This document shows, piece after piece, positions 1-49,302 of a stretch of DNA of 64,000 bases. Under the pieces are notes generated by a model. The model did not search any database, was not told where the DNA came from, and was given only the letters and a program-made list of their open reading frames with translations. Made by a program: the position numbers and the translations under genes. Positions within the stretch are counted from its first letter, which is position 1; each line of letters opens with the position of its first letter. Origin of the DNA: an uncultured Bacteroidota bacterium (GTDB lineage Bacteria > Bacteroidota > Bacteroidia > JABEUT01); assembly GCA_903863935.1 (NCBI GenBank), contig CAIPDV010000069.1, positions 19,322 through 83,321 on the forward strand. Direction: 5' to 3'.

Positions 1-435
1 GTTTTCATGAATACCTTGGTATAACATTTGATTATTTCTCCTCATTTATTCCGGAAACAAATGATGTTAATCCCAATATCAACATTCAAAATTTCGGCTC
101 CAATGCTGAGCTATCCTTCAATTTTGGGTTCTCGTTAAATTAAGAAATAGAGAAGAATCAAAATTTACATTGCATACCAGCGACAAACGGGGAGATTATT
201 CACAAACTATCGACTTCAAGAGATAACACCTTCCATTGGTGTTTATAGTTATTCTTTTTAATAGTCCGGTTCGGTTCACATAGGCCAGGCCGGATTTGTT
301 AAAATTTCTTAAATGCAATATACTCCCCAAACGTTTTATTCCTCACCCCCGTTATCAAAGGGTGTAGAGCTAATAAAGTTGGAATAATTTACGATAAGAA
401 ATAAACAAGATGGTTTTTGAATTACCTCATTTCAG

Positions 436-509
436 TGGTCCCGGCGGGATTCGAACCCACGACCCACAGATTAGAAATCTGTTGCTCTATCCAACTGAGC
501 TACGGAACC
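436..509 (-). tRNA. tRNA-Arg (anticodon TCT), 74 nt, no encoded CCA
   Basis: The reverse complement folds as a canonical cloverleaf. Acceptor stem GGTTCCG/CGGGACC, D-arm GCTC...GAGC, anticodon stem ACAGA/TCTGT with loop TTTCTAA, T-arm GTGGG-TTCGAAT-CCCGC. Confidence 0.85.
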
Positions 510-523
510 AAAATAGGTGGTTG

Positions 524-598
524 TCGGGGTAGGCAGATTCGAACTGCCGACCTCCACGTCCCGAACGTGGCGCGCTAACCAGGCTACGCTACACCCCG
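524..598 (-). tRNA. tRNA-Pro (anticodon CGG), 75 nt
   Basis: Reverse complement gives acceptor stem CGGGGTG/TACCCCG, anticodon stem CCACG/CGTGG with loop TTCGGGA, and T-arm GTCGGCAGTTCGAATCTGCC. Confidence 0.8.
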
Positions 599-631
599 TT
601 TTACGTTAAACGGCCGCCAAAAGTATTAAAT

Positions 632-2077
632 TTGCATCACTTAAAAACAAAAACATTGAAAACAAAGTCTATTTTTTTATCCGTTTTTATGCTGGCTGCC
701 CTTGCAGTATCAGCTTTTCCAGGCAAACCGGTAAAGCACCGTTACGATTTTAACCTCAAAGGTTTACATCATACCAAATGCTTCTTGGGGTTTTATTATG
801 GCGATAAAAGCTATGTGCTTGATTCATCGGATGTTGATGAAAAAGGCAACTTCCATTTTTCAGGAGATAGCGTACTTCCCGGCGGGGTTTATTTTGTTTT
901 ACTTAAGGACAAAAAATATTTCGAATTCATTATTGATAAGGAACAGCATTTCACAATGAGTTCCGATACCAACGACTTTATAAAGTTCATGAAAGTGGTA
1001 GGTTCACCTGAAAACCAGCTATTTTATAGTTACCTGAATTATGCTGCTTCCCAGTATACAAAACTTCAAAAAATTCAGGATTCGGCTAAAACCCCCAAAG
1101 AAAAGGCAACCGCCCATGTAAAAATTGATTCGCTGAACAATGCTGTAAAAAAATACAAAGATGACTTTGCAGCAAAACATCGTGATTATTTACTCTCCGA
1201 GATTTTTAAAGCAGCCGAATATCCCGATGTGCCGGAAACTCCTATCCTTAAGAATGGCAGAAAAGATTCAAGCTTTGCATTCCGCTATTATAAGGCTCAC
1301 TTCTTCGATAATATTAATTTCTCCGACGACCGAATGGTGCATACACCATCGCAGGTTTTCTTCGACCGTATTAAGGAATATTTCAGCCGTCTTACCTTCC
1401 AGATTCCGGATTCTATAAACGCTGCAGCCGATTATATCCTGGCAAAAGCACGCAAGAGCCCCGATATGTATAAGTTCCTGGTGAACTACATTTCGTATAC
1501 CTACGAAAGCTCCAACATTATGGGAATGGATGCTGTGTTCGTACACATGGTTAAGAATTATTATACTCCCCAATCTGCAGTATGGGAAAGCCCATCTCAC
1601 CTCGAAAAAATGAGGGAACGAGCCGATGTGCTCGAGCCAATTTTGATTGGCAAACCTGCCATACCAATTGTGCTGCCCGATACAGCAAACGTAATGAAAG
1701 AAATGTATGCCATAAATGCCCGTTACACCATATTGTTTTTCTGGGATTATGATTGCGGCCTTTGCCAAAAGGAAATGCCTAAAATGATTAAGTGGTACGA
1801 TTCCATTAAAGGACAAGGCATAGAGGTTTATGCAGTTGAAATTAATGAGGCCGACCCCGGCAAATGGAAAGACTATATTAAAGCCCACAAGCTAGACTGG
1901 ATCAACGTTGCAGATCTATTCCATACAAGTAATTTCCGTCACGATTATGATGTAATAAGCACCCCTATGATTTATGTGCTGGATGAACGCAAATACATCA
2001 TTGCCAAAAAGATTGATGTTGGCGACCTGAACGGTATCCTGCGGCACGATGAGCAGATACATTCGGGAGGGAAGTAG
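632..2077 (+). CDS. Secreted thioredoxin-fold thiol-disulfide oxidoreductase-like protein (TlpA/AhpC-TSA-like C-terminal domain)
   Basis: N-terminal signal peptide (KSIFLSVFMLAALAVSA). C-terminal CGLC (CxxC) redox motif in a thioredoxin-like context (FWDYDCGLCQKEMPKM). Confidence 0.5.
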   Translation: MHHLKTKTLKTKSIFLSVFMLAALAVSAFPGKPVKHRYDFNLKGLHHTKCFLGFYYGDKSYVLDSSDVDEKGNFHFSGDSVLPGGVYFVLLKDKKYFEFIIDKEQHFTMSSDTNDFIKFMKVVGSPENQLFYSYLNYAASQYTKLQKIQDSAKTPKEKATAHVKIDSLNNAVKKYKDDFAAKHRDYLLSEIFKAAEYPDVPETPILKNGRKDSSFAFRYYKAHFFDNINFSDDRMVHTPSQVFFDRIKEYFSRLTFQIPDSINAAADYILAKARKSPDMYKFLVNYISYTYESSNIMGMDAVFVHMVKNYYTPQSAVWESPSHLEKMRERADVLEPILIGKPAIPIVLPDTANVMKEMYAINARYTILFFWDYDCGLCQKEMPKMIKWYDSIKGQGIEVYAVEINEADPGKWKDYIKAHKLDWINVADLFHTSNFRHDYDVISTPMIYVLDERKYIIAKKIDVGDLNGILRHDEQIHSGGK

Positions 2078-2114
2078 CCGAGAATACAGTAACTTTGCAA
2101 TAGAAATAATTTAT

Positions 2115-2495
2115 ATGGGATTGACATATTCAAAGATAAAATTAAGTAATCCGCGCAATACTGACTTATTACCAATTGAACTTAATGCTCTTGTAGATAC
2201 AGGAGCTTTAACAATGTGTATATCGCAATCGGTAGCGTTCCAATTAGAACTTGAAGAATTGGAAAAGCGACCTGTAACTATTGCTGATGGCAGTACGCAT
2301 GAGGTGCCTTATGTTGGCCCGGTGAGAGTTGATTTTGAAAACCGGTTTTGTTTTACAGGGGCCTTGGTAATCGGAGATGAAGCCTTATTAGGTGCCGTAC
2401 CAATGGAAGAAATGGATTTAATTGTGCATCCTGCTAAACAAAAGCTAATGGCAAACCCATTGCATCCAAATAGGCCAGGTTATACTATTAAGTAG
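2115..2495 (+). CDS. Retropepsin-like (clan AA) aspartic protease family protein
   Basis: D-T-G-A active-site motif (LVDTGALTMCIS) in a ~125 aa protein. Start moved to the internal Met (MGLTYSK) to remove the overlap with the upstream CDS. Confidence 0.45.
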   Translation: MGLTYSKIKLSNPRNTDLLPIELNALVDTGALTMCISQSVAFQLELEELEKRPVTIADGSTHEVPYVGPVRVDFENRFCFTGALVIGDEALLGAVPMEEMDLIVHPAKQKLMANPLHPNRPGYTIK

Positions 2496-2501
2496 GTTGT
2501 A

Positions 2502-5246
2502 CTATTTCTGAATTACCACCTTGCCGCTGCCAAGTGTGTTTCCGCTTTCAGTTATTACCCTATAGAAATAAACCCCGTTAGGTTGATTGCTGATATTTAT
2601 TTCTTCACTCTTTGCTCTCAGTTCTTCGCTTTTAACTCTCTGCCCCAGTACATCATAAATTTCTACTGACAACTGTCCACTGGCAACTGACGACTGAATT
2701 GTGAAGGTGCCATTATTTGGGTTGGGGAAGATGGTGATGTTGCTGCTTCCGGTGGCTAGTTGATTAATACCTGTGCAATCCTCAACAAACAAGCTATCGG
2801 TAGCTGTTGCAGAACAGCCATTAGAATCGGTAAAGCTATAGTAAATAAAATTAAACGAATTAGTAACAGCGGAATCAGGATAAAAATGAGTTCCAACAAT
2901 TGCAAGACCTGTTAAAACTCCACCTGAAGGATAAGAATAAATGGAAATAACGCCATTGGAATTACAAACTGAATCACTTGAGCGATGCACAATAATCACA
3001 GTTGGTAATGGATTAACGTGAATAAGTGCACTATCTTTAGTCTTACACCCCACAAAATCAGATACAGTTATTAAGTATTTCGTGTCAATTTTAGGTGCTA
3101 CGGAAATTGAGGTGGTTGTTTTACCATTGCTCCAAAGATACTTATATGGAGAAATACCACCGGCTGAGTAATCATTCAAATAAATAGTATCACCTAAGCA
3201 AATAGACGTATATGGAATTGTATCTGTTAATCTTGAAGGCTGAGTAATAGTTACTGTTGCAAAACCTGCACATCCGTTATAATCAGTTATCGTTAAGGTA
3301 TAAGTTCCTGCTGTCAGCGCATTATCCGAAGCATTTGTTCCTCCTCCAGGACTCCAAAAATATTGATATGGGTTAGTACCCCCGCTAACTGATGAAGTTA
3401 TATAACCGGAATTATCTTCAAAACATTTTAAATTATGTGGATTTAAAGTAACGTTTAGTGCTGGTGGCTGTTTAATTGTATCAAAAAGAATTGATTTGCA
3501 ATTATTTGCATCATTAATAACTATTGTAAATGTGTTGGCAGAAAGATGTGTAAGACTTGAAGTAGTATTTCCATTGCTCCAGAGATAGGTGTATGGGGTT
3601 GCACCACCTGTAACTAAAATAATGGATGACCCATCATTCCCACCATAGCAACCAATATCGGTGTTCAGGATTATTATTGTTTTAGATGGAGGTTGTGTAA
3701 TTGTAACTTGTGTGGAGTCTATGCATCCGTTTTTGTCAGTAATATTTATAGTGTAAATTCCGGCAATTAATCCGGTGGCTAAAGCATTTGTTCCTCCTTT
3801 ACCAGTCCATTTATATGTGTAAGGAGTGGTTCCACCACTTAAGGTAACGTTTGCAATACCGACACTGTCTCCATAGCAAGACTCATTATTCAATACCGCC
3901 CCATTTAATAGTAGTGCCCCAGGTTGGGTAATAGTAACTGTTGCTGTACTTGCACAACTATATTTATCGGTAATACTTACTGTATAACTGCCTGCACTTA
4001 AATTGCTCGCGCTTACATTTGTTCCTGCTCCGCCGCTCCAGGTATAGTTATATGGGCCTGTTCCACCATTTAAAGTAACCATAATGCTTCCATTATTTTC
4101 TCCGTAACAAAAAATGCTTTGAACTACAGAAGCAGTTGCAGAAAAGCTACAGTTATATATTTCACGAATCCGATTGTTCAGCAAATCGTCAATAAATAGT
4201 CTCCCTAAACCATCCATAACTACTCCTGCAGGTTGATTAAGCTCGGCACTTGTAGCAGGCCCTCCATCACCGCTAAAACTGCCAAACCCAGTTCCGGCAA
4301 TTGTATTGATATTTCCCGATGTATTTACTTCCCGAACACAATTATTAGCAATGTCTGAAAAATATAAATTGCCAGTTGGATCAATAGAAATAAAAGAAGG
4401 TCCGTCTAGTTTCGCTGATTTAGCAGGTCCACCATCACCACTGTACCCCGCAATTCCATTACCAATAATAGTTGAAATAATACCTGATGTGGTTATCATC
4501 CTGACACGATTATTACCTCTATCACATATATATAAATTTCCGGCAGGATCCGTTGTAAGTCCAACCGGATAATCCAATTCAGCAGCTGAAGCAGCACCAC
4601 CATCTCCAGAATAACCAAATATATTCGGTTTACCGGCAAAAGTGGTTATAATACCACTTGTATTTACTTTTCGAATAATTGAATTTCCAAAGTCAGCTAT
4701 ATACACATTGCCAGATAAATCAACTGTTACACCTGCTGGAAGATTCAGATCGGCATTTGTTGCCTGTCCACCATCCCCACTGTACCCAGTAATATGTTCG
4801 CCAGCAAATGTTGAAATTATCCCGGAAGTAGTTACTTTACGTATAACGGCGTTATCCCGATCTGCTATATACATATTTCCGGAAGGATCAAATGCTATAT
4901 CAAGGGGGGTATGCAATTCGGCAGCTGAAGCCTGCCCCCCATTACCACTATATCCGGCAACTCCTGCCTTTCCTGCAATAGTGTATATAAGACCGGTAGT
5001 TGTATTAACCATGCTTATAATTTGAGATCCGGCTTCTGCGGAATAAATATTACCTGTTGCATCTGTATTCATACCGTCCGGTTCATTTAATTCGGCGGCA
5101 GTTGCTGGTCCGCCCATTCCACTGTATCCTGCCGGACCAATACCTGCAATTGTAGTTATAATTTGAGCCGCATTGTATGAGAAGAAACCAGAACAGAAAA
5201 TTAAAATCGATACTACCAGTAATTTATTTTTATTCATATACTTCAA
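2502..5246 (-). CDS. T9SS-secreted cell-surface protein: N-terminal NHL-repeat beta-propeller + SprB-type repeats + type-A Por C-terminal sorting domain
   Basis: Signal peptide. Repeated NHL-like units (GNIYIAD.., SGDGGQAT). At least four SprB-like repeats (CYG..G...V.GGT.PYTY.WS.G). C-terminal IFPNPNNGTFTI...VIQK tail typical of the Por_Secre_tail family. Confidence 0.6.
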   Translation of the reverse strand: MKYMNKNKLLVVSILIFCSGFFSYNAAQIITTIAGIGPAGYSGMGGPATAAELNEPDGMNTDATGNIYSAEAGSQIISMVNTTTGLIYTIAGKAGVAGYSGNGGQASAAELHTPLDIAFDPSGNMYIADRDNAVIRKVTTSGIISTFAGEHITGYSGDGGQATNADLNLPAGVTVDLSGNVYIADFGNSIIRKVNTSGIITTFAGKPNIFGYSGDGGAASAAELDYPVGLTTDPAGNLYICDRGNNRVRMITTSGIISTIIGNGIAGYSGDGGPAKSAKLDGPSFISIDPTGNLYFSDIANNCVREVNTSGNINTIAGTGFGSFSGDGGPATSAELNQPAGVVMDGLGRLFIDDLLNNRIREIYNCSFSATASVVQSIFCYGENNGSIMVTLNGGTGPYNYTWSGGAGTNVSASNLSAGSYTVSITDKYSCASTATVTITQPGALLLNGAVLNNESCYGDSVGIANVTLSGGTTPYTYKWTGKGGTNALATGLIAGIYTINITDKNGCIDSTQVTITQPPSKTIIILNTDIGCYGGNDGSSIILVTGGATPYTYLWSNGNTTSSLTHLSANTFTIVINDANNCKSILFDTIKQPPALNVTLNPHNLKCFEDNSGYITSSVSGGTNPYQYFWSPGGGTNASDNALTAGTYTLTITDYNGCAGFATVTITQPSRLTDTIPYTSICLGDTIYLNDYSAGGISPYKYLWSNGKTTTSISVAPKIDTKYLITVSDFVGCKTKDSALIHVNPLPTVIIVHRSSDSVCNSNGVISIYSYPSGGVLTGLAIVGTHFYPDSAVTNSFNFIYYSFTDSNGCSATATDSLFVEDCTGINQLATGSSNITIFPNPNNGTFTIQSSVASGQLSVEIYDVLGQRVKSEELRAKSEEINISNQPNGVYFYRVITESGNTLGSGKVVIQK

Positions 5247-5259
5247 AGATTCGATTTGG

Positions 5260-8200
5260 TCATTTCTGAATCACAAATTTTCGACTCGATTTTAATACCC
5301 CATTCCCATTCATTACCTGGCAAATATACACTCCGTTAGGCTGAGTGCTAAGGTCTATTTTTTTAGAAAAGCTATTCCCTGAAACAAAAAAATGAGAATC
5401 ATATATTTTTTGACCCAGCACATTATCTATTTCCAATGAAATTGTTCCATTTATTGATCCGGACTTTATATTGAAATTACCGTTATTTGGATTGGGGTAG
5501 ATCAACCAATCCCCTGCGACTCCGGCTAGTAGAGGTATTCCAGTGCAACTTTCTACATAAATACTGTCTGTAACCGATGCGGAACATCCGTTTGAATCTA
5601 TGTAGCTGTAGTAGATAAAATTAAATGCTCCGGTTTTAGCTGAATCCGGATAAAAATATTTCCCATGCACTGCATCCCCGCTTAATATCCCCCCCTTGGG
5701 ATTCATAAAAATGGTTATTACTCCCGCCCCGTTGCAAATTGTATCATTCGATTGAAGGATGAGAATTAATGAAGGTAGCGGATTTACTTTAATTATGGAA
5801 CTATCTTTTGTAAGACATCCGGTAGAATCTGTTACAGCAAGAATAAATTTGCTTGTATTTACCGGTGCAATGGAAATAAAATTATATGTTCCGCCTGTAC
5901 TCCACAAATAAGTGTAAGGGTTGAACCCGCCAGAACTATAATCAAATAACGTAACTGAATCACCAATGCAAACTGACGTTTTGGGAATGCTGTCCTTGAT
6001 TTTAGTGGGTTGAGTAATTGTAATAGCCGCAAAACCTGCACATCCATTATTATCGGTAATGTTAAGAGTATAAGTATTAGCTACCAGGTTACTATCTACG
6101 CTTCCTGTTGCTCCACCAGGTTTCCATAAGTATGTGTATGGCCCTGTACCTCCCGTAACTGTTGAACTAATATTTCCATTTTTATCTCCAAAGCAATGAA
6201 GATTGTGTACACTGTCTGCTATCTTTATTTCCTGGGGTTGGGTAATGGTGTCAGTTAAAATCAGAGTACAGTTATTTTTATCTTTTATAGTAATTGAATA
6301 AACTCCCCTGGATAGATTATTTACACTTAAAGTTGTATTGCCGTTGCTCCATAAATAGGTATATGGTGCCAACCCCCCGGAAACTATTGCATATGCCGAG
6401 CCATCGTTACCACCATAACATTGTACATTATTACTTGCAGTATAAACATTCATAACTGGGGCCTGCGTAATAACCACGGAAGCTGTTGAATTGCATCCGG
6501 AAGCATCCTTAATAGACACCGTATATGTGCCTGCACTAAGTCCACTGATATAAGAATTAGTACCATAACCCGCACTCCATAAATAAGTATAGGGTGCTAA
6601 ACCTCCTATTGTTGATATAAAGGCGTCAGCATTTGAATCTCTGTTACAAACAATATTGTTTATAACCGATATTGAAGCGACTAATGGGCTAATTTGGGCA
6701 ACGCTAAAAGTATCGGTAACTGCAAAATCACAATTGTGTGACACGGTTACAGTATAATTTCCTGCAATTAACCCGGTCACGGTTCTACTTGTAGCTCCAT
6801 TACTCCACGAATAAGAATATTGATTGGTATCCCAAAGGCATCCATTAATTGTTGCTGAAACTACAGCCCCGTCACAGTAATTGGTATGATTTTTATTAAC
6901 TGTTAAGCTGTAAATACTTGGTAAATTGAAACTGGAAATAAATTGATTACCGCAAACTATTAGTTTATTATTTATAGCAACACGAAGATCATAAATTTGA
7001 TTTGTGGCATTAATAACCGTTGTAATATTCAATCCCGTATCTAATACTTCCACTTTTGTGTTATTTGCTACGTAAATATTTTCACATAAATCTAAATCTA
7101 TTCCGCTCCAGTTCAAACTTGAGGCACCAATGTTTTTTGTAAATGTATTTACCCCAGTACTTTTATAATATCTCCGAAGGGTTTGTCCATCAAATAAATA
7201 GATCCATTTAGAACCTGCAACTTCACCATTCGGCGATGAACTATAACCTTGCTTTCCATCAATATAACTCAAATCGGGCAAGCCTTCGTAAAATGAAAAA
7301 CCATCAGATATAATATAATTAGTTGTCATGTAAGGCAATGTACATTTAACTAAAACATTATCGAAATCGGTTAAACTCGAATTGGTTTTCATAATTGCAG
7401 CATAAACGGCTGTATTGGAATTGTCAATTGCAAGAAGTGCAACATCATGTTGTGTTTCTCCACTGTGCAGAATATCAAATCCCTGAATAGAAGTAAAACT
7501 GGTATCTAGTAAGCAAATTTGGTTAGGATCTGCTGTTCCCCCGCCACCTATAACTAACTGTCCTATGCATTTACTATATGCTACTTTCCATAATTCTTCC
7601 ATAGGGTGTCCAATTGTGTAGGAATTTACCTGAATGCCATTAGAGTTTAATTTTAGGATAGTTGGTTCACCTGCACACCCCAAATAACTCGTACCACTTA
7701 CTTCATCTACGGCAAAGCTTCCGAACCCTGCAAGGGTATTCGGATAAATCGCATTAAAAATCCACTGAATATTTCCTGTACTGTCAAGTTTTATTTCTTG
7801 ATATGGGTTGAAACTACCATAAACATAAACATTGCCATGTAAATCGTAGTTTATATCATAACCCGCGTCATAACCCGTAAATAAAGGATTTACCGTCCAA
7901 GGGTCAATAACTAATGTTTTACTTTTATCATAAATACATAAAAACGATATTTCGTTTCCACTTTTTTGAAATGAGGCAGATACATTTTCATTGCTCTCTT
8001 TGTAAAAAACTTTTGTGGGCTTATGGTCAGTAAAATCGCCAAAGGAGCTTTGCAACTCGATATTACCGGAAGAATTAATTATACTATTATTTGCGTCTTT
8101 ATACAACAGTTTTACTTGTGATAGATTTGCACCCGGATGAATAATTACTGAGTACTCTAATCCCTTATCATTTGCAGGGAAGGAATATTCAATATCTATT

Positions 8201-8697
8201 CCATTATATATGTTTTTATACAGAATTTTTTTACACGCATGTGCAAAAACAGTATGGTTATTTCCAGCAGGATAGCAGTAATAGAACTTTACAGGGTCTT
8301 CTGATATTAATTCAACATTCGGATTTGCATTTTCCCATTCAACTGAAAAAAAATGTGTCTCCGGCTTATTTCTATCTGTATCTTTTCTTTCATCTTCATC
8401 TCCGGCAGGAGGAGGAAATTTATCATATCGGTAAGTAACTCCTTTAGGCGTAAAGTATACATCAACCCCTGTTATGCGTGTTGTGCATAATATTTTACCT
8501 TTTTCGGCAGGTATCTTTCCATCTAATTGTCCTTCATTATTCTCAATAAATACCTTCAGCTCAAATGGCTCGTTTACGGTCCATTTAGCTTGTGAAAGGC
8601 CATTTGCAGGTATAGTACTACTCTGTCCCATCACCTTAAAACAGGGGAATAATAAAATCAGAAAAATATAAAAAAAGTAATTTTTTACTATCTTCAT
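5260..8697 (-). CDS. T9SS-secreted large surface protein with SprB-type repeats and type-A C-terminal sorting domain; paralog of the downstream gene
   Basis: Signal peptide. The C-terminal ~500 aa are collinear and ~55% identical to 2502..5246 (CYGGNDGS..GG.APYTYLWSNGNTT.., ..NGCAGFA..TITQP..). C-terminal LIYPNPNNGNFNIKS..VIQK tail. Confidence 0.6.
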   Translation of the reverse strand: MKIVKNYFFYIFLILLFPCFKVMGQSSTIPANGLSQAKWTVNEPFELKVFIENNEGQLDGKIPAEKGKILCTTRITGVDVYFTPKGVTYRYDKFPPPAGDEDERKDTDRNKPETHFFSVEWENANPNVELISEDPVKFYYCYPAGNNHTVFAHACKKILYKNIYNGIDIEYSFPANDKGLEYSVIIHPGANLSQVKLLYKDANNSIINSSGNIELQSSFGDFTDHKPTKVFYKESNENVSASFQKSGNEISFLCIYDKSKTLVIDPWTVNPLFTGYDAGYDINYDLHGNVYVYGSFNPYQEIKLDSTGNIQWIFNAIYPNTLAGFGSFAVDEVSGTSYLGCAGEPTILKLNSNGIQVNSYTIGHPMEELWKVAYSKCIGQLVIGGGGTADPNQICLLDTSFTSIQGFDILHSGETQHDVALLAIDNSNTAVYAAIMKTNSSLTDFDNVLVKCTLPYMTTNYIISDGFSFYEGLPDLSYIDGKQGYSSSPNGEVAGSKWIYLFDGQTLRRYYKSTGVNTFTKNIGASSLNWSGIDLDLCENIYVANNTKVEVLDTGLNITTVINATNQIYDLRVAINNKLIVCGNQFISSFNLPSIYSLTVNKNHTNYCDGAVVSATINGCLWDTNQYSYSWSNGATSRTVTGLIAGNYTVTVSHNCDFAVTDTFSVAQISPLVASISVINNIVCNRDSNADAFISTIGGLAPYTYLWSAGYGTNSYISGLSAGTYTVSIKDASGCNSTASVVITQAPVMNVYTASNNVQCYGGNDGSAYAIVSGGLAPYTYLWSNGNTTLSVNNLSRGVYSITIKDKNNCTLILTDTITQPQEIKIADSVHNLHCFGDKNGNISSTVTGGTGPYTYLWKPGGATGSVDSNLVANTYTLNITDNNGCAGFAAITITQPTKIKDSIPKTSVCIGDSVTLFDYSSGGFNPYTYLWSTGGTYNFISIAPVNTSKFILAVTDSTGCLTKDSSIIKVNPLPSLILILQSNDTICNGAGVITIFMNPKGGILSGDAVHGKYFYPDSAKTGAFNFIYYSYIDSNGCSASVTDSIYVESCTGIPLLAGVAGDWLIYPNPNNGNFNIKSGSINGTISLEIDNVLGQKIYDSHFFVSGNSFSKKIDLSTQPNGVYICQVMNGNGVLKSSRKFVIQK

Positions 8698-8768
8698 ACT
8701 ATAAAGATAATGAATTTATTACAAATGAAAGGCAACGCACTATTAATTAAAATGCCTTTCATTCACAA

Positions 8769-9152
8769 TTATTCCCCATCCTCATCTATAGGCTCCCAAG
8801 GATTATCATTAAAAGTGTTAAGACGGTTCTGTTCATCAACAAAGTTTTTATAAAAAATCCCGAGCATTTTAATTAAAACCCGCACATCTCCGGCTTCAAT
8901 TTTGCGCATTGCTATCTCAAGTAATTCCTCTTTTGCGTGTCGGTGCCGTATGTCTAGTAAACTCCCTACGGAGTTATTATAGTCATTGTCTTCCCTGCAC
9001 CATCGGTAGTGAGTCCGTTCCGAAACCTTTGCATCTAAAGCTGCATTTTTCACATTCCCATGAAATGCTTCTAAAGAGGCAAGCATGACTCCTTTTTGTT
9101 TGGCTGTTTCATTTTTTGAATTCCTGCGCATAAACTTTAATTTATGATGCAA
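8769..9152 (-). CDS. Small helix-turn-helix protein, phage terminase small-subunit-like / phBC6A51-type HTH
   Basis: Motif GNVKNAALDAKVSERTHYRWCRED matches the G-N-V-x-x-A-x-x-x-G-(I/V)-S-x-x-T-x-Y-x-W signature of terminase-small-subunit-type HTH domains. No other phage genes nearby. Confidence 0.4.
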   Translation of the reverse strand: MHHKLKFMRRNSKNETAKQKGVMLASLEAFHGNVKNAALDAKVSERTHYRWCREDNDYNNSVGSLLDIRHRHAKEELLEIAMRKIEAGDVRVLIKMLGIFYKNFVDEQNRLNTFNDNPWEPIDEDGE

Positions 9153-18706: not shown

Positions 18707-18857
18707 AGTAGCAGAATGAAGATGGTATGAAGTATTGGGCTATTGGAGTGTTAACGGAAGTTAATATTTGCAAGATGAAGAATAGTATAAAAGTAAAAGT
18801 GAAAAGGCTGCCCGACGTACCCGCCTGACAGCCTTTCAAGAATTTAAGGAAGTGAAA

Positions 18858-19067
18858 TTACTTAGCGGCTTTCTTGTCAGCTTTTTTCTCAACTTTCTTG
18901 TCAGCTTTCTTTTCCATCTTTTTGTCTACCTTCTTGTCTTCTTTCTTATCGGCTTTCTTAACTGCCTTCTTTTCGGTTTTAGGCTTTTCTTGCTTTACAA
19001 CCGGACGAGCAATAGACATTCCTCCGAAGAGTACTACACCTGCTAGGATCAAACTTAACTTTTTCAT
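18858..19067 (-). CDS. Small secreted Lys-rich low-complexity protein, copy 3 of 3 (69 aa)
   Basis: Related signal peptide MKKLSLILAGVVLFGGMSIA, then KKADKKEDKKVDKKMEKKADKKVEKKADKK repeats. Conserved upstream block and downstream hairpin. Confidence 0.45.
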   Translation of the reverse strand: MKKLSLILAGVVLFGGMSIARPVVKQEKPKTEKKAVKKADKKEDKKVDKKMEKKADKKVEKKADKKAAK

Positions 19068-19108
19068 GACTTTTTTGTTTTTAATATTATTTGTTAGAAA
19101 CTGAAAGC

Positions 19109-19116
19109 AAAACTAC
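19109..19116 (-). promoter_or_regulatory. -7 promoter box TAGTTTTG for copy 3
   Basis: Fits the TAnnTTTG consensus, within the conserved upstream block. Confidence 0.4.
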
Positions 19117-19235
19117 ATCAGCAGAATGAAGGTCGTATGAAGATGAATAGTAGTGCAATGTGAAGGAATGTTAAAATAATTAATTGTCCTTTCTGAATAG
19201 ATTCTATTTTTGCGGTCTCATTAAACATAAACATC

Positions 19236-20210
19236 ATGAAAAAAGGACCAATATCAACATTCATTGACAAGAACTATTTGCACTTTAATTCTGCAACACT
19301 GGTAGATGCATCCAATGCCTACATAAAGCACATGGATAAAAAAGGCAAAATGATGATTACCCTAGCGGGGGCTATGAGTACTGCTGAGTTAGGTATCTCA
19401 CTTGCTGAAATGATTCGCAAGGATAAAGTATCTATTATTTCCTGTACCGGTGCAAACTTGGAGGAGGATATCATGAACCTGGTTGCACATAATCATTATA
19501 AAAGGGTTCCGCATTACAGGCAATTGTCTCCTGCCGAAGAATGGGATTTGTTGGAGCATGGCTATAACCGTGTAACGGATACCTGCATTCCGGAAGAAGA
19601 AGCTTTCCGCCGCATACAATCTCATATTCATAAGTTGTGGAAAAAGGCACAAACCTCAGGTAAACGCTATTTTCCACATGAATATATGTATCAACTGCTG
19701 CTTTCAGGAGTGATGAAAAAGCACTATGAGATTGATACCAAGAATAGTTGGATGATAGCCGCAGCAGAGAAGAACCTGCCTATTATTTGCCCGGGTTGGG
19801 AAGATTCCACTATGGGAAATATTTTTGCTTCTTATTGTATAAAAGAAGAGTTGCAACCTAGCATCGTAAAATCGGGTATTGAATATATGATGTGGCTTGC
19901 CAATTGGTATACCCAAAATTCAAAAGGACAAGGTGTAGGCTTCTACCAGATTGGCGGTGGTATTGCGGGTGATTTCCCAATTTGTGTAGTACCGATGTTA
20001 TATCAGGATATGGAAAGGACCGATACTCCATTCTGGGCTTATTTCTGTCAGATATCGGACTCAACTACCAGTTATGGTTCATACTCGGGAGCAGTGCCAA
20101 ATGAAAAGATTACCTGGGGTAAACTGAGCGATAAAACTCCACGTTTTATAATAGAATCAGACGCTACCATTGTGGCTCCGCTGATGTTTGCATACATATT
20201 AGGTAAGTAG
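19236..20210 (+). CDS. Deoxyhypusine synthase-like protein (DHS family)
   Basis: The N-terminal region (GKMMITLAGAMSTAELGISLAEMIRKDKVSIISCTGANLEEDI) resembles the Rossmann-like core of deoxyhypusine synthase and homospermidine synthase-like proteins. Confidence 0.5.
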   Translation: MKKGPISTFIDKNYLHFNSATLVDASNAYIKHMDKKGKMMITLAGAMSTAELGISLAEMIRKDKVSIISCTGANLEEDIMNLVAHNHYKRVPHYRQLSPAEEWDLLEHGYNRVTDTCIPEEEAFRRIQSHIHKLWKKAQTSGKRYFPHEYMYQLLLSGVMKKHYEIDTKNSWMIAAAEKNLPIICPGWEDSTMGNIFASYCIKEELQPSIVKSGIEYMMWLANWYTQNSKGQGVGFYQIGGGIAGDFPICVVPMLYQDMERTDTPFWAYFCQISDSTTSYGSYSGAVPNEKITWGKLSDKTPRFIIESDATIVAPLMFAYILGK

Positions 20211-20286
20211 CAAATAGAGTTTAGGATAATGCTTCACGTCTTTAGATGTGAAGCATTATTCATTTATGTAACTTGCAAAAGTATTT

Positions 20287-21030
20287 ATGACACATACCTA
20301 CAAAATAACCGGAATGACTTGCAGTGGCTGTGAAGCCACCGTGAAAGGTAATTTACTGAAACTGTCCGAGGTTGAATCCGTAGAATTATCAAAGGATACA
20401 GGTATTGCGACTATAGGAATGAGCAAACATCTTTCAGTTTCCGATTTACAGAATGCAATTGGAATAAATAGTAAATATCATATTTCGGAAGATAGTAATC
20501 AGTCATCAGTTGTCAGTAGTCAGTCATCTACCGAGTATAGAAGTTGGTTAGCTACTTACAAACCCCTCATCATTCTGTTTAGTTTAATATTTAGTGTTTC
20601 ACTCATCGCATCTAAAAAGGCTGACGGAACTGTTGAATTTACAACCTGGATGCGGTATTTCATGGCAGGATTTTTTCTTTGCTTTTCATATTTCAAGCTC
20701 ATTAATGTAAAAGCTTTTGCCGATTCATTCAGTATGTATGACATTGTCGCTAAACGTATAAAAACCTGGGGATTTATGTACCCTTTTATGGAACTCGCTT
20801 TAGGTATTTTGTATGCAATGAATTTATACCCGCTATATACCAATATTGCAACCGTTGCCATTATGGGTGTAAGCAGCATCGGGGTAATACAAAGTGTTGC
20901 GAGCAAGAAAAAAATTCAATGTGCTTGCTTGGGTGCAGTGTTTAATTTGCCGATGAGTACTATTACCATTATAGAAGACTTATTAATGGTAGTAATGGCA
21001 GGTGGAATGATTTGGATGGAGTTGAAATAA
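20287..21030 (+). CDS. Heavy-metal-associated (HMA) domain fused to a MauE/DoxX-like membrane domain
   Basis: N-terminal GMTCSGCEATV metal-binding motif. C-terminal ~140 aa have four predicted TM helices with MauE-like features. Confidence 0.5.
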   Translation: MTHTYKITGMTCSGCEATVKGNLLKLSEVESVELSKDTGIATIGMSKHLSVSDLQNAIGINSKYHISEDSNQSSVVSSQSSTEYRSWLATYKPLIILFSLIFSVSLIASKKADGTVEFTTWMRYFMAGFFLCFSYFKLINVKAFADSFSMYDIVAKRIKTWGFMYPFMELALGILYAMNLYPLYTNIATVAIMGVSSIGVIQSVASKKKIQCACLGAVFNLPMSTITIIEDLLMVVMAGGMIWMELK

Positions 21031-21033
21031 GTT

Positions 21034-21354
21034 CTATTTATAGTCCTTACTCTTCATAGCCGTAACATGCCCTGAGTTATTATCAATCCTGAAAATCTTA
21101 TATATCCGGGTTACTATAGTGGAAGGTTTTTTATCCTCAGGGTCAACATTCTCAAAACTCACGGTTATGCTCCAGCTCTTCTTTTCTTCGCTTAACTCCA
21201 CTTCTTCCAGCATAATATTCTTAGCATTCGAATAAAATGACTTAAGGTATTCTATAGCTGCATTGGCAGCTTCTTTTGCATTTATCATAGTAGAGGTTGT
21301 TTTCTTATTATACATCAAAGTTAGCACTATATTTACAACCTCACTTATAGGCAT
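21034..21354 (-). CDS. Hypothetical small protein; true start probably the internal Met (MINAKEAANAAIEYL..., ~84 aa, start near 21288)
   Basis: ORF only. A hairpin + T-tract directly abuts the most upstream ATG, so the longer start is unlikely. Confidence 0.3.
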   Translation of the reverse strand: MPISEVVNIVLTLMYNKKTTSTMINAKEAANAAIEYLKSFYSNAKNIMLEEVELSEEKKSWSITVSFENVDPEDKKPSTIVTRIYKIFRIDNNSGHVTAMKSKDYK

Positions 21355-21614
21355 AAAAAAAGGAAGGTAAGTCGTCCTTACCTTCCGATTGTTAGGCTTT
21401 GCTTGCTAAGCCTAATTTCAACTCGCACTCAATCTGAGATATACTCTGACTGAAACTCAAAGGCAAAAGTATAGTGAACTTAGTCCTTTGTCCATGACAG
21501 GCATCAATTGGGTGAGATGATATTAACATGGACTTAAAGAAAATTATTTATCTTGTGTCCGGAATCTTGCCCTCACTTCGTCATTACAGCATAAACCAAT
21601 AAAACTAAATAGTC

Positions 21615-22034
21615 ATGGCAAAAACAATTGTTCAAAAAGTAGTGTTTAAGAACACAACACCAAAAGCACTTTACGACCTATATATGGATGCTAAAAAGCA
21701 TACCTTAATATGCGGTGCAGATTGCGAAATAACTCCCAAAGAGGGAACTAAATATTCCGTTTACGGAGGATATGCTACCGGGAAAAACCTTCAATTAATA
21801 AAAGATAAACTCATTGTTCAATCGTGGAGGGCGTCGGACTGGGATGAAAACCAAATGGACTCAACCTTTATTATCAACCTTGAACAAAAAGGTAAGGATG
21901 TAGTTTTGAATGCCATTCACGCTAATTTACCGGATAAAGAAGCTAAGAGTATTGACCAGGGCTGGCATGATTTTTACTGGAATCCCTGGAAACAACATCT
22001 AGCAGGCAAACCGATCACTCGTGCAGAAATGTAA
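21615..22034 (+). CDS. SRPBCC-superfamily protein (Aha1/activator-of-Hsp90-ATPase-like domain)
   Basis: ~139 aa with sequence features of the AHSA1/SRPBCC ligand-binding fold. Weak, pattern-based call. Confidence 0.4.
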   Translation: MAKTIVQKVVFKNTTPKALYDLYMDAKKHTLICGADCEITPKEGTKYSVYGGYATGKNLQLIKDKLIVQSWRASDWDENQMDSTFIINLEQKGKDVVLNAIHANLPDKEAKSIDQGWHDFYWNPWKQHLAGKPITRAEM

Positions 22035-22107
22035 ATTATTTTTTCGGTTTGTCCGGAAATGAAAATAGAGAACGGCTTAATAGTATAAATCAACAAACAA
22101 AAACAAA

Positions 22108-22593
22108 ATGAAAAAGTCAAGTTACGAGTCAGAAATTATTCTGAAACTGAACAGCAGATTATTTACCAGTGCATTGGATGGTGTTACCGATGAACATGCC
22201 GCTCAGCAATTAAGTGACCACAATAATCCGTTAAAATGGATTGCGACCCATACCGTCTGGGCAAGGTATAATATGTTGAATATTTTAGGCAAGCCTGCAA
22301 CAAATCCGTATGCCGGAATGTTTGAAAATTTCAGACCTTATAATGCTGCCGACAAATACCCTACACTTGCTGAGGTGAAACAAGAATGGGCTAAAGTTAC
22401 AGCGTTACTCTACGATGCAATGGCTTCAGTAACGGAAGAACACCTTGCCGCTGATTGTCCTTTGAAAAGCCCTATTGGAGATTTTTCAAATGGAGGAACC
22501 TTCGCTTTCCTTGCACAGCATGAGAGTTATGATATTGGTCAAATAGGCTTTTTGAAAAAGTATTACACAAAGGAAGCAATGAAGTATAATTAA
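22108..22593 (+). CDS. DinB/YfiT-like (DinB_2 family) protein
   Basis: ~160 aa helical-bundle protein with conserved His/Asp positions typical of the DinB-like metalloenzyme superfamily. Confidence 0.4.
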   Translation: MKKSSYESEIILKLNSRLFTSALDGVTDEHAAQQLSDHNNPLKWIATHTVWARYNMLNILGKPATNPYAGMFENFRPYNAADKYPTLAEVKQEWAKVTALLYDAMASVTEEHLAADCPLKSPIGDFSNGGTFAFLAQHESYDIGQIGFLKKYYTKEAMKYN

Positions 22594-22679
22594 TTTCAGT
22601 TCATTGTCCGGAAGTAAAAACCTCACACGTCATAGTATCATAAAACAATAAATTAGTAACCTTTAAAACAACAACCAAA

Positions 22680-23024
22680 ATGGAAAAATTCTTGTATTTA
22701 TTCAGAGGGGGTATGGATTATACCGCTGCGTCACCCGAAGCTATGCAGGCAAATATGCAAAAATGGAATCAATGGATGGGTAAGTTAATGCAGGATGGCA
22801 TTATGCAAGGCGGAGAGCCATTGCAAGCTGCATCTAAAAAAGTGGCAGGAAAATCGAAAGTAGTTACCGACGGCCCATTTGCCGAAGCCAAAGAAATTGT
22901 TGGCGGTTATCTGCTCATCAATGCCAATGATATAAACCATGCCGTTGAATTATCAAAAGGCTGCCCCATATTCGAAATGGATGGAAGCGTTGAAGTTCGT
23001 CCTATTCAGAAAATGGAAATGTAA
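22680..23024 (+). CDS. YCII-related (DGPF-like) domain protein
   Basis: ~114 aa. GGEPLQ....GGYLLINANDINHAVELSKGCP matches the YciI-like family. Directly upstream of an ECF sigma factor. Confidence 0.6.
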   Translation: MEKFLYLFRGGMDYTAASPEAMQANMQKWNQWMGKLMQDGIMQGGEPLQAASKKVAGKSKVVTDGPFAEAKEIVGGYLLINANDINHAVELSKGCPIFEMDGSVEVRPIQKMEM

Positions 23025-23026
23025 AC

Positions 23027-24292
23027 TTGCCTTCAAACGAAGACAAATCAGTAAGTACAATGGTTGACCATCTTTTCCGGCACGAGTCGGGAAAGATGGT
23101 TGCCGTTTTAACAAGGGTATTCGGTTTTGCAAACATTGAGCAGGCCGAAGACATTGTTCAGGATACCCTTATTCGTGCCCTTGAAACATGGAGATTTGGT
23201 AAAATACCGGATAATCCTCAAGCATGGCTTTATCGCACTGCGAAGAATAAAGCCATCGATTTAATCCGCCGTCAAAAAGTAAAACACAAAATTGAAAGTG
23301 AGCTTGCACCACTTTTAAAATCTGAATATACATTAGTTCCTTCCATGAATGAAATGTTCCGTGAAAATGAAATTAAAGATAGCCAGTTGAGAATGATGTT
23401 TGCCTGTTGCCATCCGGCTATTGCACTCGAGTCGCAACTTACATTGATGCTAAAAACACTTTGTGGACTTAGTTCAAAAGAGATAGGCAATGCATTTCTT
23501 TCAAGTGAAGATACTATTCAAAAACGACTTTACCGTACCAAAGAAAAAATAAAAGAAGAACGTATTTCGCTCGAGTATCCGGGAGCCGATAGTATGCCTG
23601 TGAGGTTAGATACTGTGCTGAAAGCATTGTATTTATTGTTTAATGAAGGGTACAATTCTTCTCACCCGGAAAAATTGATTCGGGATGATTTATGTGAAGA
23701 AGCTATACGTTTAACACTTCTGCTAACAGAAAACCCGAAGACTAACCTTCCGCAAACCAATGCACTTTTAGCCTTGATGTGTTTTCAGGCTTCGCGCTTT
23801 GGTGCAAGGCTTGATGATAAAGGATTCATGGTGCTTTTAAAAGACCAGGACAGAACTCATTGGAACAAATTCTTAATTCAACGAGGAAATGAATATCTCA
23901 ATAGTGCTGCCGAAGGAGACATGATTCATGAATATCATTTTGAAGCAGCAATTGCATCTCTTCACGCTAATGCAAAATCGTATGAAGAAACTAATTGGAG
24001 TTTAATTCTGCAACTATATAATAGTCTTTCCAGCCGCACACAAAACCCAATGGTGGCTATTAACAGGTGCATTGTATTGGGTGAAGTGGAAGGATATGAA
24101 AAAGCAATTTCAGAATTAGAAAAAATTAAAGGATTTAATAATAATTGCTACTACAATGCATCTCTCGGAGAGATGTATCTGAAAGCAGGCAACAAAAATG
24201 AAGCCATCAGCTATTTTCAAAAAGCACTTGAACTAACTTCCTCCAATGCAGAGATTGAATTGATAAGAAGGAAGATAAATATGTGTAAGTAA
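23027..24292 (+). CDS. ECF-type RNA polymerase sigma factor with a long C-terminal TPR-like extension (ECF42-like architecture)
   Basis: Sigma-70 region 2 (DIVQDTLIRALETWRFGKIPDNPQAWLYRTAKNKAIDLIRRQ) and region 4 (TLCGLSSKEIGNAFLSSEDTIQKRLYRTKEKI). A ~230-aa C-terminal helical repeat extension. A YCII/DGPF neighbour is the known ECF42 context. Confidence 0.6.
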   Translation: MPSNEDKSVSTMVDHLFRHESGKMVAVLTRVFGFANIEQAEDIVQDTLIRALETWRFGKIPDNPQAWLYRTAKNKAIDLIRRQKVKHKIESELAPLLKSEYTLVPSMNEMFRENEIKDSQLRMMFACCHPAIALESQLTLMLKTLCGLSSKEIGNAFLSSEDTIQKRLYRTKEKIKEERISLEYPGADSMPVRLDTVLKALYLLFNEGYNSSHPEKLIRDDLCEEAIRLTLLLTENPKTNLPQTNALLALMCFQASRFGARLDDKGFMVLLKDQDRTHWNKFLIQRGNEYLNSAAEGDMIHEYHFEAAIASLHANAKSYEETNWSLILQLYNSLSSRTQNPMVAINRCIVLGEVEGYEKAISELEKIKGFNNNCYYNASLGEMYLKAGNKNEAISYFQKALELTSSNAEIELIRRKINMCK

Positions 24293-47672: not shown

Positions 47673-48521
47673 CTATGAAAACCCTTTTTCTTTCTTCACA
47701 GTTTCATAGGCTTCCTGCACTTTTTTGAACTTCTCTTCAGCTGATTTTCTTACGTCTTCACCTAAATGGGTAACCCTGTCAGGGTGATATTTAAGTGCCA
47801 TCTGCCGGTAGGCTTTCTTAATTTCTTCTTCAGTAGCACTTTTTTCGATACCTAATATTTCATAGGCTTTCGATTTGTTGGCAACGCTACCACCTCCTCC
47901 GCCAAACATGGCCCCCACTGTTTTAAAGTCTGTGGGGCTTATTTGCAGGTAAACTGATATTTTGTATAATAAAGCTTGCTCGTGGGTCGAGAAGCTTCCA
48001 TCGGCGTAAGCTATTCCGAATAAATAGTGCATTAACTGCAACCGGCTGTGGTAGGTCATTTTGCTTTGGGCTGCATAACAAATCCTTTCAAGCGGTATTT
48101 CATTCTTTAAGGCTTCGCGAAGCATAAGCAGGTTTTGTTTGGCTTTTTCAACCCCGAACTGGCGCACAAAAAAATCTTTTACATATTCCAGTTCCGAGCG
48201 GGTAGTTTTACCATCGCTTCGCATTACTGCGGCGGAAAGGGATACAAGTATAAAATTAAATCCCCCGCTGTAATTCTCAAGTATTGAGTCAAGGTTCGGG
48301 TTTCCTGTACTCCCCGGAGTATCTTTCGGATCTTCTTGTTTTGATCGCATGTATTCATCGTAAAGGGCACCAAGCAAAAAACCTGCTATAGCCCCATCTA
48401 ACCGCGCAAAAAACCAACCAATAATTACTCCGAAAAACTTTCCTGTTATATTTATCATACCGATTATGGTGTAAAAATAGGTTGTTTTAAGCAGACCGAT
48501 GTTAAAAAAGCTCCGATCCAT
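47673..48521 (-). CDS. DjlA-like membrane-anchored J-domain co-chaperone (TM + TerB-like + DnaJ domain)
   Basis: C-terminal J domain with HPD ([14 protein letters not shown]). Central TerB-like region. N-terminal hydrophobic helix. Start trimmed to Met 99 (MDRSFF) of the 380-aa ORF. Confidence 0.55.
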
Positions 48522-48570
48522 TAACGAATGGCTATTAGCTAATTTGTTAATTTTGGGCTGCACAATATAT

Positions 48571-49302
48571 ATGTACGCACTTTTAAAAAAGGAAATATCT
48601 GGCTTTCTGGGGTCCCTTATCGGATACATTGTAATAGGTGTATTCCTTATTACCATTGGGTTACTGCTATGGGTAGTTCCTTCCGAATCGAATATCCTAA
48701 GCAGCGGGTATGCAGGTATCGACCCCTTATTTGTTTTAGCTCCCTGGGTATTTATGTTTCTTATTCCGGCAGTTAGTATGCGTTCTTTTGCAGAAGAGAA
48801 AAAGACCGGCACCATAGAACTTCTTTTAACCCGACCCCTCAGCGACCTTGAAATTATCCTGGCAAAATATTTGGCTTGTATTGTTCTGGTTATTCTGTCC
48901 TTGTTGCCTACGTTGGTATATTATTTCTCCGTTTCTATTTTAGGCAGCCCTCCCGGAAACCTTGACAATGGCCGTACATGGGGTTCGTACCTGGGGCTGA
49001 TTTTCCTTGCCAGCGGCTTTGCTTCTATCGGGGTGTTTGCTTCCTGCATCAGTGGCAACCAAATAGTGTCATTTATAATAGCGGTGATACTTTGCTTTAT
49101 ATGCTATACCGGGTTTGGCTTTGTCGGCCAATATCTTTCTTCGGGTATGCTGGGTAATTTTGTTCAATCTATGGGGATAAGCCTCCATTATTCCTCCATG
49201 AGCAGAGGAGTGATTGATACCCGCGATGTGCTATATTTTGCCAGTATTTCAACGGCTTTTATTTTAATGACCAGAACCTCTCTTGAAAGCAGAAAATGGT
49301 GA
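48571..49302 (+). CDS. gldF: Gliding motility ABC transporter permease GldF-like
   Basis: ABC-2 type permease. The N-terminal region ([29 protein letters not shown]) resembles the GldF N-terminus. Followed by a gldG-like gene overlapping by 7 bp. Confidence 0.6.

Follow-up and report, generated by a model that had tools for sequence, protein, structure and literature searches.

How did two neighbouring genes come to encode proteins with one common stalk and two different heads, and what might such proteins do? The pair, here called A and B, lies in a window of 64,000 nucleotides (the whole stretch of DNA analysed) and had been singled out by an original prediction as giant, paralogous cargo of a type IX secretion system (T9SS). 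Our answer, which we hold to be likely, is that B and A, in this order, form an operon of two genes for secreted binding proteins, displayed on the surface of an uncultured, gliding member of the Bacteroidota, and that the locus arose by duplication and module exchange. Both genes are intact open reading frames (ORFs), adjacent on the minus strand, and were delimited from the ORF list and from Pfam/NCBIfam matches; at 914 and 1145 aa their products are too small for the word 'giant'.

2502-5246, minus strand: gene A, 914 aa (911 aa from ATG); public call P0121
5260-8697, minus strand: gene B, 1145 aa; public call P0001
5247-5259, minus strand: spacer between B and A, 13 nt long (22 nt with A starting from the ATG at 5237)
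8718-8769, minus strand: hairpin (stem of 17 bp) lying between the small upstream ORF and B (RNA fold)
8769-9152: small upstream ORF with sub-threshold resemblance only to HTH proteins and terminase small subunits
632-2077, plus strand: thioredoxin-like gene, on the 3' side of A and convergent with it
2049-2495, plus strand: clan AA aspartic protease gene, adjoining the 3' end of A and convergent with it

The gap of 13 bp predicted at the outset applies if A starts with the TTG at 5246 and grows to 22 nt if translation begins, as in P0121, at the ATG three codons further on. In fact, the public calls of both genes use later start codons than the longest ORFs, and P0001, which is 100% identical to B but begins at M23, loses the predicted signal peptide through this late start. 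A terminator scan found no terminator-like site in the spacer (13-22 nt), and from their arrangement B and A most likely form a two-gene operon. The hairpin ahead of B (-18.1 kcal/mol, z -2.9) may terminate transcription of the upstream gene, in which case the unit would begin with B; further upstream of B, beyond the small HTH-like ORF, lies nadD. A sigma-70 promoter scan returned 32 sites, no excess over the 29.3 in shuffled sequence, with a model that does not cover Bacteroidota promoters. The idea that the thioredoxin-like and retropepsin-like (aspartic protease) genes are co-transcribed with the pair has to be dropped, since both sit on the opposite strand.

What the two proteins have in common is found in their C-terminal halves, which carry five SprB units each (about 76 aa per unit; PF13573 at 115.5 and 93.8 bits for the two proteins, cut-off 28), followed by a sorting domain:

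3675-4145, minus strand: A, SprB units 1-2 (aa 368-524)
2742-3674, minus strand: A, shared stalk (aa 525-835), SprB units 3-5 and an unassigned domain of about 80 aa
2505-2741, minus strand: A, type A T9SS C-terminal sorting domain (aa 836-914; TIGR04183, PF18962)
6445-6912, minus strand: B, SprB units 1-2 (aa 596-751), unit 1 degenerate
5512-6444, minus strand: B, shared stalk (aa 752-1062), SprB units 3-5 and an unassigned, Cys-bracketed domain of about 80 aa
5263-5511, minus strand: B, type A T9SS C-terminal sorting domain (aa 1063-1145; TIGR04183, PF18962)

Failure of these halves to align had been named beforehand as evidence against paralogy, and BLASTP aligns them collinearly with 48% identity over 554 columns (E 7e-164). 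The collinearity initially proposed is thus borne out, while the identity of about 55% over the C-terminal ~500 aa is reached only over the 311 aa from SprB unit 3 to the sorting domain (A 525-835 against B 752-1062); it amounts to 44% between the sorting domains, 33-43% between units 1-2 and 52.8% over the last ~390 aa. As units 1-2 of A and B are no more alike than SprB units generally, specific paralogy is confined to these last ~390 aa. The low values for units 1-2, of the order seen between any two SprB units, together with the fact that tandem cargo genes of generic similarity are common, might be read to mean that A and B are unrelated neighbours whose likeness is simply that of SprB repeats and sorting domains at large. 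We consider this very improbable, because units 3, 4 and 5 match by position (51, 58 and 54%, against 26-43% off the diagonal) and because A and B share 50% identity in the non-repeat tail, where no other protein retrieved exceeds 34%. Among ~240 database homologues, moreover, the C-terminal parts of A and B are mutual best matches (48%), the next best protein reaching 37% and 35%, and scans of GTDB genomes and JGI metagenomes gave none closer than 44-45%.

Ahead of the stalks, the two proteins part company, as had been predicted, with TEN_NHL (PF25021) and NHL (PF01436) matching the head of A (132.8 and 67.9 bits) and DUF7948 (PF25778) that of B (142 bits):

4152-5159, minus strand: A, six-bladed NHL beta-propeller (about aa 30-365), from TEN_NHL and NHL matches
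7897-8550, minus strand: B, DUF7948 domain (aa 50-267), in the model a beta-supersandwich of the galactose-mutarotase-like kind
6913-7890, minus strand: B, seven-bladed beta-propeller (about aa 270-595), from an AF2 model

Six repeats of about 56 aa (GYSGDGG...GN.Y.AD..N..IRKV) can be read in the head of A (aa 30-365), and three 69-nt DNA repeats lie within the gene at 4259-4834. Sequence searches of the PDB matched this head to a teneurin-like protein (9ifo, E 1e-72), to the Pizza designed six-bladed propellers and to PknD (1rwi). The six NHL repeats are common to A, the PknD sensor, the teneurin NHL domain and the bacterial teneurin-like 9ifo, the last three being extracellular modules for ligand binding or interaction; what sets A apart from these is that its propeller is fused to an SprB stalk and a sorting domain for the T9SS. 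Such a fusion is also seen in P0131, P0148, P0196, P0205 and P0235, and the head of A is 50-55% identical to the propellers of many other proteins. A tetranucleotide comparison that asked whether P0235, a third paralogue (NHL, SprB and type A sorting domain), belongs to the same genome gave a correlation of 0.95, a value like that of unrelated Bacteroidia MAGs.

As for B, a PDB sequence search with residues 1-595 gave no match, and residues 268-595 gave no Pfam match even at E<=10. Structure prediction, suggested at the outset for this N-terminus, yielded confident AF2 models of a supersandwich (second model, DUF7948 part, pLDDT 92.7) and a propeller of 27 strands in 7 blades (pLDDT 90.2, pTM 0.90), for which Foldseek gave target-normalised TM-scores of 0.75 with WDR5, 0.68 with YncE and 0.60 with Brat NHL. 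The DUF7948 model resembles the supersandwich domains of glycoside hydrolases and polysaccharide lyases, and also YidC, with sequence identity below 10% to every structural match. With high model confidence, we therefore describe the head of B as a predicted DUF7948 supersandwich plus seven-bladed propeller, a conserved two-domain head. The region once called an 'unrelated ~600-aa region' does differ from the head of A, but it is itself conserved, and 'swapped propellers' was an apt description, given that B contains a propeller as well. The latter is probably a divergent propeller of the SBBP type: distant DUF7948 relatives carry Pfam SBBP (PF06739) repeats in this region and, while the repeat model finds none in B itself, the seven blades of the fold suggest that it would work like an SBBP propeller.

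The B head is widespread, with matches to at least 792 representative clusters (50% identity) at E<=1e-30 and with 92 database homologues (excluding B's own public call) that align over residues 268-595. DUF7948 cargo proteins from Bacteroidia and Chitinophagia MAGs (P0006, P0009, P0022; P0109 from Pinibacter aurantiacus) share the ~600-aa head at 35-48% identity (65% for the fragment P0241); as in B, DUF7948 and propeller lead into a first SprB-like unit that is degenerate. SprB or PKD repeats come next, and then a T9SS sorting domain. That domain is mostly of type B (PF13585) in these relatives, whereas B has a type A domain and the stalk it has in common with its NHL neighbour. The closest relative of the B head, L166, comes from a contig that is frameshifted and chimeric after about nt 4950, so its tail is not comparable with that of B; its equivalent of the first SprB-like unit is, at 49%, closer to unit 1 of B than unit 1 of A is (33%), and on this sequence comparison the first unit of B belongs to the DUF7948-head lineage.

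Stalks that are each other's closest relatives, joined to heads of unrelated families whose best relatives are elsewhere, argue that the pair is a mosaic, most likely made by duplication plus module exchange. In this scenario the last ~390 aa would long ago have been duplicated in tandem or exchanged between neighbouring cargo genes, leaving one stalk with two heads, either by N-terminal replacement or by C-terminal transfer of a stalk between neighbours. With stalk identity only 48-55% and no close outgroup, order and direction of the events are not reconstructable. Hence, the duplicated cassette with N-terminal replacement that was originally proposed stands as far as duplication and head exchange go, with its paralogy reduced to ~390 aa and its direction undecidable. 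Recent gene conversion between A and B was considered and rejected: they have no long DNA repeat in common, only short repeat-motif families of 60-84% identity. The original prediction had proposed to compare copy number at orthologous loci in related genomes, and neither the GTDB nor the JGI scan contained such a locus. None of the 80 loci from the GTDB scan, which covers representative genomes (the host genome not among them), is syntenic with the window or has a nadD, thioredoxin, protease or small-ORF match, the best head identity being 45%, and in the JGI metagenomes the shared stalk matched generic SprB proteins only (at most 44%). Related MAGs commonly have such cargo genes in tandem arrays, with the same kinds of module in many combinations, and A and B are an ordinary example: Bacteroidota surface-protein diversification by module shuffling.

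How would the two proteins reach the surface? Their sorting domains score well above the curated cut-offs of TIGR04183 (A 57.3, B 46.3 bits; cut-off 23) and PF18962 (A 62.6, B 42.9 bits; cut-off 27) over aa 839-913 in A and aa 1066-1144 in B, and both end alike in ...PNPNNG.F.I...V(V/F)IQK. Consistent with this, the domain of A matches PDB substrate sorting-domain chains 8glk_D and 8glj_D (E 5e-6, sequence search), and a search for the type B domain (PF13585/TIGR04131) found a sub-threshold CHU_C match only (18.7 bits, cut-off 27). The type A Por tails first noticed by motif are thereby confirmed, and, of the models proposed as a check, SprB and TIGR04183 match both proteins above their cut-offs and NHL matches A. 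By eye, both N-termini have a charged n-region, a hydrophobic h-region and a Q after the likely cleavage site, and the B homologue consensus likewise has a leader of ~20 aa ending in A-Q; for B the putative signal peptide reads:

8626-8697, minus strand: B, putative signal peptide (about aa 1-24), MKIVKNYFFYIFLILLFPCFKVMG followed by QSS, read by eye

At the level of sequence, the reading of A and B as SprB-repeat proteins that are type A cargo of the T9SS, predicted to be secreted, is therefore supported. We infer export by Sec through the N-terminal signal peptide, after which the outer membrane would be crossed by the T9SS with recognition of the type A domain via the PorV shuttle, and the proteins would either be released or, as in Porphyromonas, have the sorting domain cut by PorU and become attached to anionic LPS (type A handling as in PMC12618676 and PMC9143113). 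The T9SS core genes sprA/sov, porV, porU and gldKLMN are absent from the 64-kb window. Like other type A cargo (the P. gingivalis gingipains, F. johnsoniae substrates), A and B have a predicted signal peptide and a C-terminal sorting domain of ~75 aa; in place of a protease or glycosidase domain, their passengers are binding-type modules. In each protein, a stalk made up of five SprB units and a small beta domain would keep a ligand-binding head at a distance from the cell.

The SprB repeats (CxG..G....GG..PYTY.W) which both proteins have in common with SprB of Flavobacterium johnsoniae, the presence of gldB, gldF and gldG in the window and the label 'gliding motility-associated' given to many homologues in source databases might suggest mobile gliding adhesins like SprB or RemA, propelled along the surface and giving traction on different substrata. 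Yet SprB is a 669-kDa protein with a type B sorting domain that needs an adjacent, co-expressed PorP-like partner, SprF (PMC9143113). At ~100-125 kDa, A and B are 6-7 times smaller, carry propeller heads and type A domains and have no porP/sprF-like gene among their neighbours. Moreover, the label is the name of a sorting-domain family rather than a tested function, and the type B PF13585 carried by most B homologues is lacking from B, so that a gliding role is, we think, improbable. Because of the type A domain, the missing sprF/porP-like neighbour and about one-sixth of its size, A and B are SprB-repeat proteins, not SprB orthologues.

Alternatively, since NHL/SGL-class propellers can be enzymes, the heads might be catalytic (lactonase, lyase or glycan-active) and the SprB stalk a mere spacer. 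Some sources do name homologues 'sugar lactone lactonase YvrE', and the invariant polar residues of the B head (Q57, Y164, D168, Y182, D265, D285, E368 in the homologue alignment) along with the hydrolase and lyase neighbours of the DUF7948 fold would suit such secreted enzymes. The SGL/gluconolactonase match in A, however, only just exceeds its whole-protein cut-off (29.5 bits, cut-off 26.3), that to Vgb lyase falls short (26.5 bits, cut-off 50), and no single stretch passes for either. The supersandwich of glycoside hydrolases and polysaccharide lyases, too, is usually an accessory rather than a catalytic domain, and Pfam and NCBIfam reveal no catalytic domain family in A or B, which makes enzymes of this kind unlikely.

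For both heads we consider binding the more likely function, and for B the galactose-mutarotase-like fold of the model suggests a carbohydrate ligand. This hint is weak because YidC, not a sugar-binding protein, has the same fold and because identity to the structural matches is so low. If the B head did bind polysaccharide, the DUF7948 family would offer candidate substrate-capture proteins of uncultured soil and freshwater Bacteroidia. A bolder and rather doubtful extension sees DUF7948 plus seven-bladed propeller as a widespread head for glycan recognition or processing, with neighbouring cargo genes routinely exchanging stalk and sorting cassettes and B having acquired the type A stalk of A; such exchange, if true, would re-route a head between PorV/LPS-anchored and PorP-anchored pathways. 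Beyond annotation, the pair is of little import, albeit a clean case of modular T9SS surface-protein evolution. For DUF7948 itself, on which a literature search found no paper, the model would provide the first fold assignment of a large family, and the 330 aa that follow it in B can now be annotated as a seven-bladed propeller.

Our analysis bears out the original prediction of two adjacent paralogous type IX secretion system (T9SS) cargo genes: A and B are real, each encoded by a long intact ORF, and both carry SprB repeats and type A sorting domains above cut-off.

2502-5246, minus strand: gene A, long intact ORF, 914 aa
5260-8697, minus strand: gene B, long intact ORF, 1145 aa, upstream of A

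A gap of 13 nt separates the B stop codon from the TTG at 5246 that starts A; it widens to 22 nt if A begins at the ATG three codons further on, as its public gene call does (P0121, 911 aa). A scan of this spacer for a terminator-like site found none. In one study, several metagenome contigs (L001-L004) carry the pair too, with identical neighbours. The exact longest ORFs of A and B are absent from the protein collection because the public calls start later; that for B (P0001, 1123 aa) begins at M23 and so misses the 22 codons of a probable hydrophobic signal peptide, MKIVKNYFFYIFLILLFPCFKVMG (window 8629-8697, minus strand). Since homologues of B have a leader of about 20 aa ending in A-Q, M1 is the better start; the homologue consensus supports the upstream ATG at 8697. 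As for composition, third-position GC in A (0.254) and B (0.272) is the lowest among the 43 ORFs of the window (mean 0.385, SD 0.049), an atypical codon usage for which acquisition, low expression or amino-acid composition could be the cause. Three antisense ORFs (4306-4572, 4642-5025 and 8172-8438) probably arise as artefacts, the coding strand being rich in repeats.

HMM searches placed two domains of both proteins well above curated cut-offs: the SprB repeat (PF13573, cut-off 28 bits) at 115.5 bits in A and 93.8 in B, and the type A sorting domain at 62.6 and 42.9 bits with PF18962 (cut-off 27) and at 57.3 and 46.3 bits with TIGR04183 (cut-off 23). In A, six NHL repeats make up the N-terminal 365 aa (TEN_NHL 132.8 bits, NHL 67.9 bits). 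Among PDB entries, the tail of A is similar to the substrate sorting-domain chains 8glk_D and 8glj_D. Both proteins share one order in their C-terminal halves, namely five SprB units of about 76 aa, a Cys-bracketed unassigned domain of about 80 aa (with the units, the stalk) and the sorting domain. The predicted collinearity over some 500 aa therefore stands, at an identity of 48% rather than about 55% (BLASTP, A 368-914 against B 596-1145, 554 columns, E 7e-164), and similarity is uneven along the way.

Identity between A and B along the C-terminal half
unit 1: 33%
unit 2: 43%
units 3-5: 51-58%
~80-aa domain: 57%
sorting domain: 44%
A 525-914 / B 752-1145 overall: 52.8%

Each of units 3, 4 and 5 is most like its counterpart at the same position (51, 58 and 54%; 26-43% for off-diagonal pairs), while units 1 and 2 are no closer to each other than SprB units are generally. 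The mosaic reading proposed for the pair is essentially right yet smaller in extent than was thought. In a set of about 240 retrieved homologues, each stalk finds its best match in the other (48%), the next best being P0235 (37% and 35%), and the non-repeat tails agree at 50%, with no other protein above 34%. P0235 is a third protein with NHL, SprB and type A domains, 40% identical to A and encoded at a separate locus, in assemblies from the study that gave L001-L004. Recent gene conversion between A and B is ruled out since no long DNA repeat joins the two genes; the event is therefore old. Within A, three 69-nt direct repeats (window 4259-4834, 62-74% identity) reflect its NHL blades.

That the N-termini differ was likewise foreseen, correctly for the NHL propeller of A; the supposedly unrelated region of B turns out to be a DUF7948 domain (aa 50-267, 142 bits) followed by a second kind of propeller. 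By sequence, the A head matches solved structures such as the six-bladed PknD/Pizza propellers and, at E 1e-72, a teneurin-like protein. For the roughly 330 aa that follow DUF7948 in B there is no Pfam match even at E<=10 and no sequence match in the PDB. An AlphaFold2 model of the B head, built on an alignment of 67 sequences, is confident (pLDDT 90.2, pTM 0.90) and predicts 27 strands in seven blades for residues ~270-595, a region whose fold matches (target-normalised TM-score) include WDR5 (0.75) and YncE (0.68), both seven-bladed, and the six-bladed Brat NHL domain (0.60). Pfam SBBP repeats fall in the propeller region of distant DUF7948-family members, but B itself has no SBBP match. An exhaustive HMMER search of 1.84 billion representatives with the B head returned 792 clusters at E<=1e-30, a number that rises to 2215 at E<=1e-10, and 92 of the retrieved homologues (P0001 left out) align across aa 268-595; judged from such alignments, the ~600-aa head is conserved as one unit. 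We found no mention of DUF7948 in the literature.

As to how this mosaic arose, the two heads have quite different closest relatives: NHL propellers across many architectures and phyla share 50-55% identity with that of A, and the B head is closest to P0241 (65% identity), encoded on contig L166. Unit 1 of B is nearer to the first degenerate SprB-like unit of L166 (49%) than to unit 1 of A (33%), and the L166 units that come next match B no better than A units do, which places the cassette junction between units 1 and 3; unit 1 of B belongs to the head lineage. The comparison stops before the tail because L166 is frameshifted and chimeric downstream. Most members of the B family end in a type B domain (PF13585), but B has the type A form there, as does its NHL neighbour. 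This is compatible with a B stalk taken from an A-like gene, transfer in the opposite direction and duplication followed by head replacement being possible alternatives. On L166 itself (1-5836), which carries the closest relative of the B head, the frameshift lies at the propeller/SprB junction, sequence after about nt 4950 is ThiF-like, GC-richer and looks foreign, so that the contig appears chimeric, and a second, divergent DUF7948 gene occupies 34-1608 on the minus strand.

Cargo genes with a DUF7948 head are multi-copy and often in tandem. A GTDB scan found 80 loci, of which about half have SprB or sorting-domain genes next to them on the same strand and four (L015, L024, L042, L066) have an NHL neighbour; none of the 80 is syntenic with the window, and a scan of JGI metagenomes gave no match above 44%. 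One MAG (Bacteroidia bacterium SEr2D2E2F bin 46, JBKQUY01) has at least nine separate loci (L007, L008, L011, L015, L026, L027, L035, L036, L066), a strong lineage-specific expansion. The A/B pair, then, is nothing unusual within the very large and well-known class of modular T9SS cargo, and its value lies in annotation and in pointing to the uncharacterised DUF7948-propeller head.

Cargo with a type A sorting domain is either released or, when that domain has been cut off, attached to anionic LPS (PMC12618676, PMC9143113). By analogy, A and B would be exported Sec-dependently across the inner membrane, have their sorting domains recognised by the PorV shuttle, pass the outer membrane via the T9SS and then be released, or anchored on anionic LPS once the sorting domain is removed. 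Since this mechanism is known for type A cargo, we read A and B as most likely surface-displayed binding proteins, with propeller heads on a common SprB stalk; there is a weak suggestion of a carbohydrate ligand for the B head. Although both carry SprB repeats, they are not SprB orthologues, from which they differ in sorting-domain type, in size and in having no sprF-like partner.

The surroundings of the pair include the following genes.

632-2077, plus strand: thioredoxin-like gene, 481 aa, DUF4369, DUF5106 and AhpC/TSA thioredoxin-fold domains
2049-2495, plus strand: clan AA (retropepsin-like) aspartic protease gene, TIGR03698, 69.6 bits
31828-32898, minus strand: gldB, PF25594, 318 bits, above cut-off
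48499-49302, plus strand: gldF, TIGR03518, 325 bits, above cut-off
49296-51056, plus strand: gldG, TIGR03521, 542 bits, above cut-off

The first two had been suggested as possibly co-transcribed with the pair; this has to be dropped, as both lie on the plus strand and converge with A. They overlap by 29 nt at the end of the thioredoxin-like gene and may be co-transcribed together. The presence of gldB, gldF and gldG in the window shows that this Bacteroidota host carries gliding genes. A 608-aa ORF (25322-27148, plus strand) has no Pfam/NCBIfam match at 1e-5. A 127-aa ORF (8769-9152), upstream of B and on its strand, shows only weak HTH-type likeness (HTH_Tnp_1_2, E 0.003; phrogs terminase small subunit, E 5e-4), and no homologue of it was found in related loci. 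Its stop codon is overlapped by a minus-strand hairpin (8718-8769; 17-bp stem, -18.1 kcal/mol, z -2.9) that ends 20 nt before the start of B and may act as a terminator or have a regulatory role. At the left window end lie tRNA-Arg(tct) (435-509) and tRNA-Pro(cgg) (523-598), both on the minus strand; just past the edge, after the tRNAs, L001 carries integrase, DNA methylase and ParB_N genes (18815-23372), so a tRNA-inserted mobile element probably adjoins, but excludes, the A/B pair.
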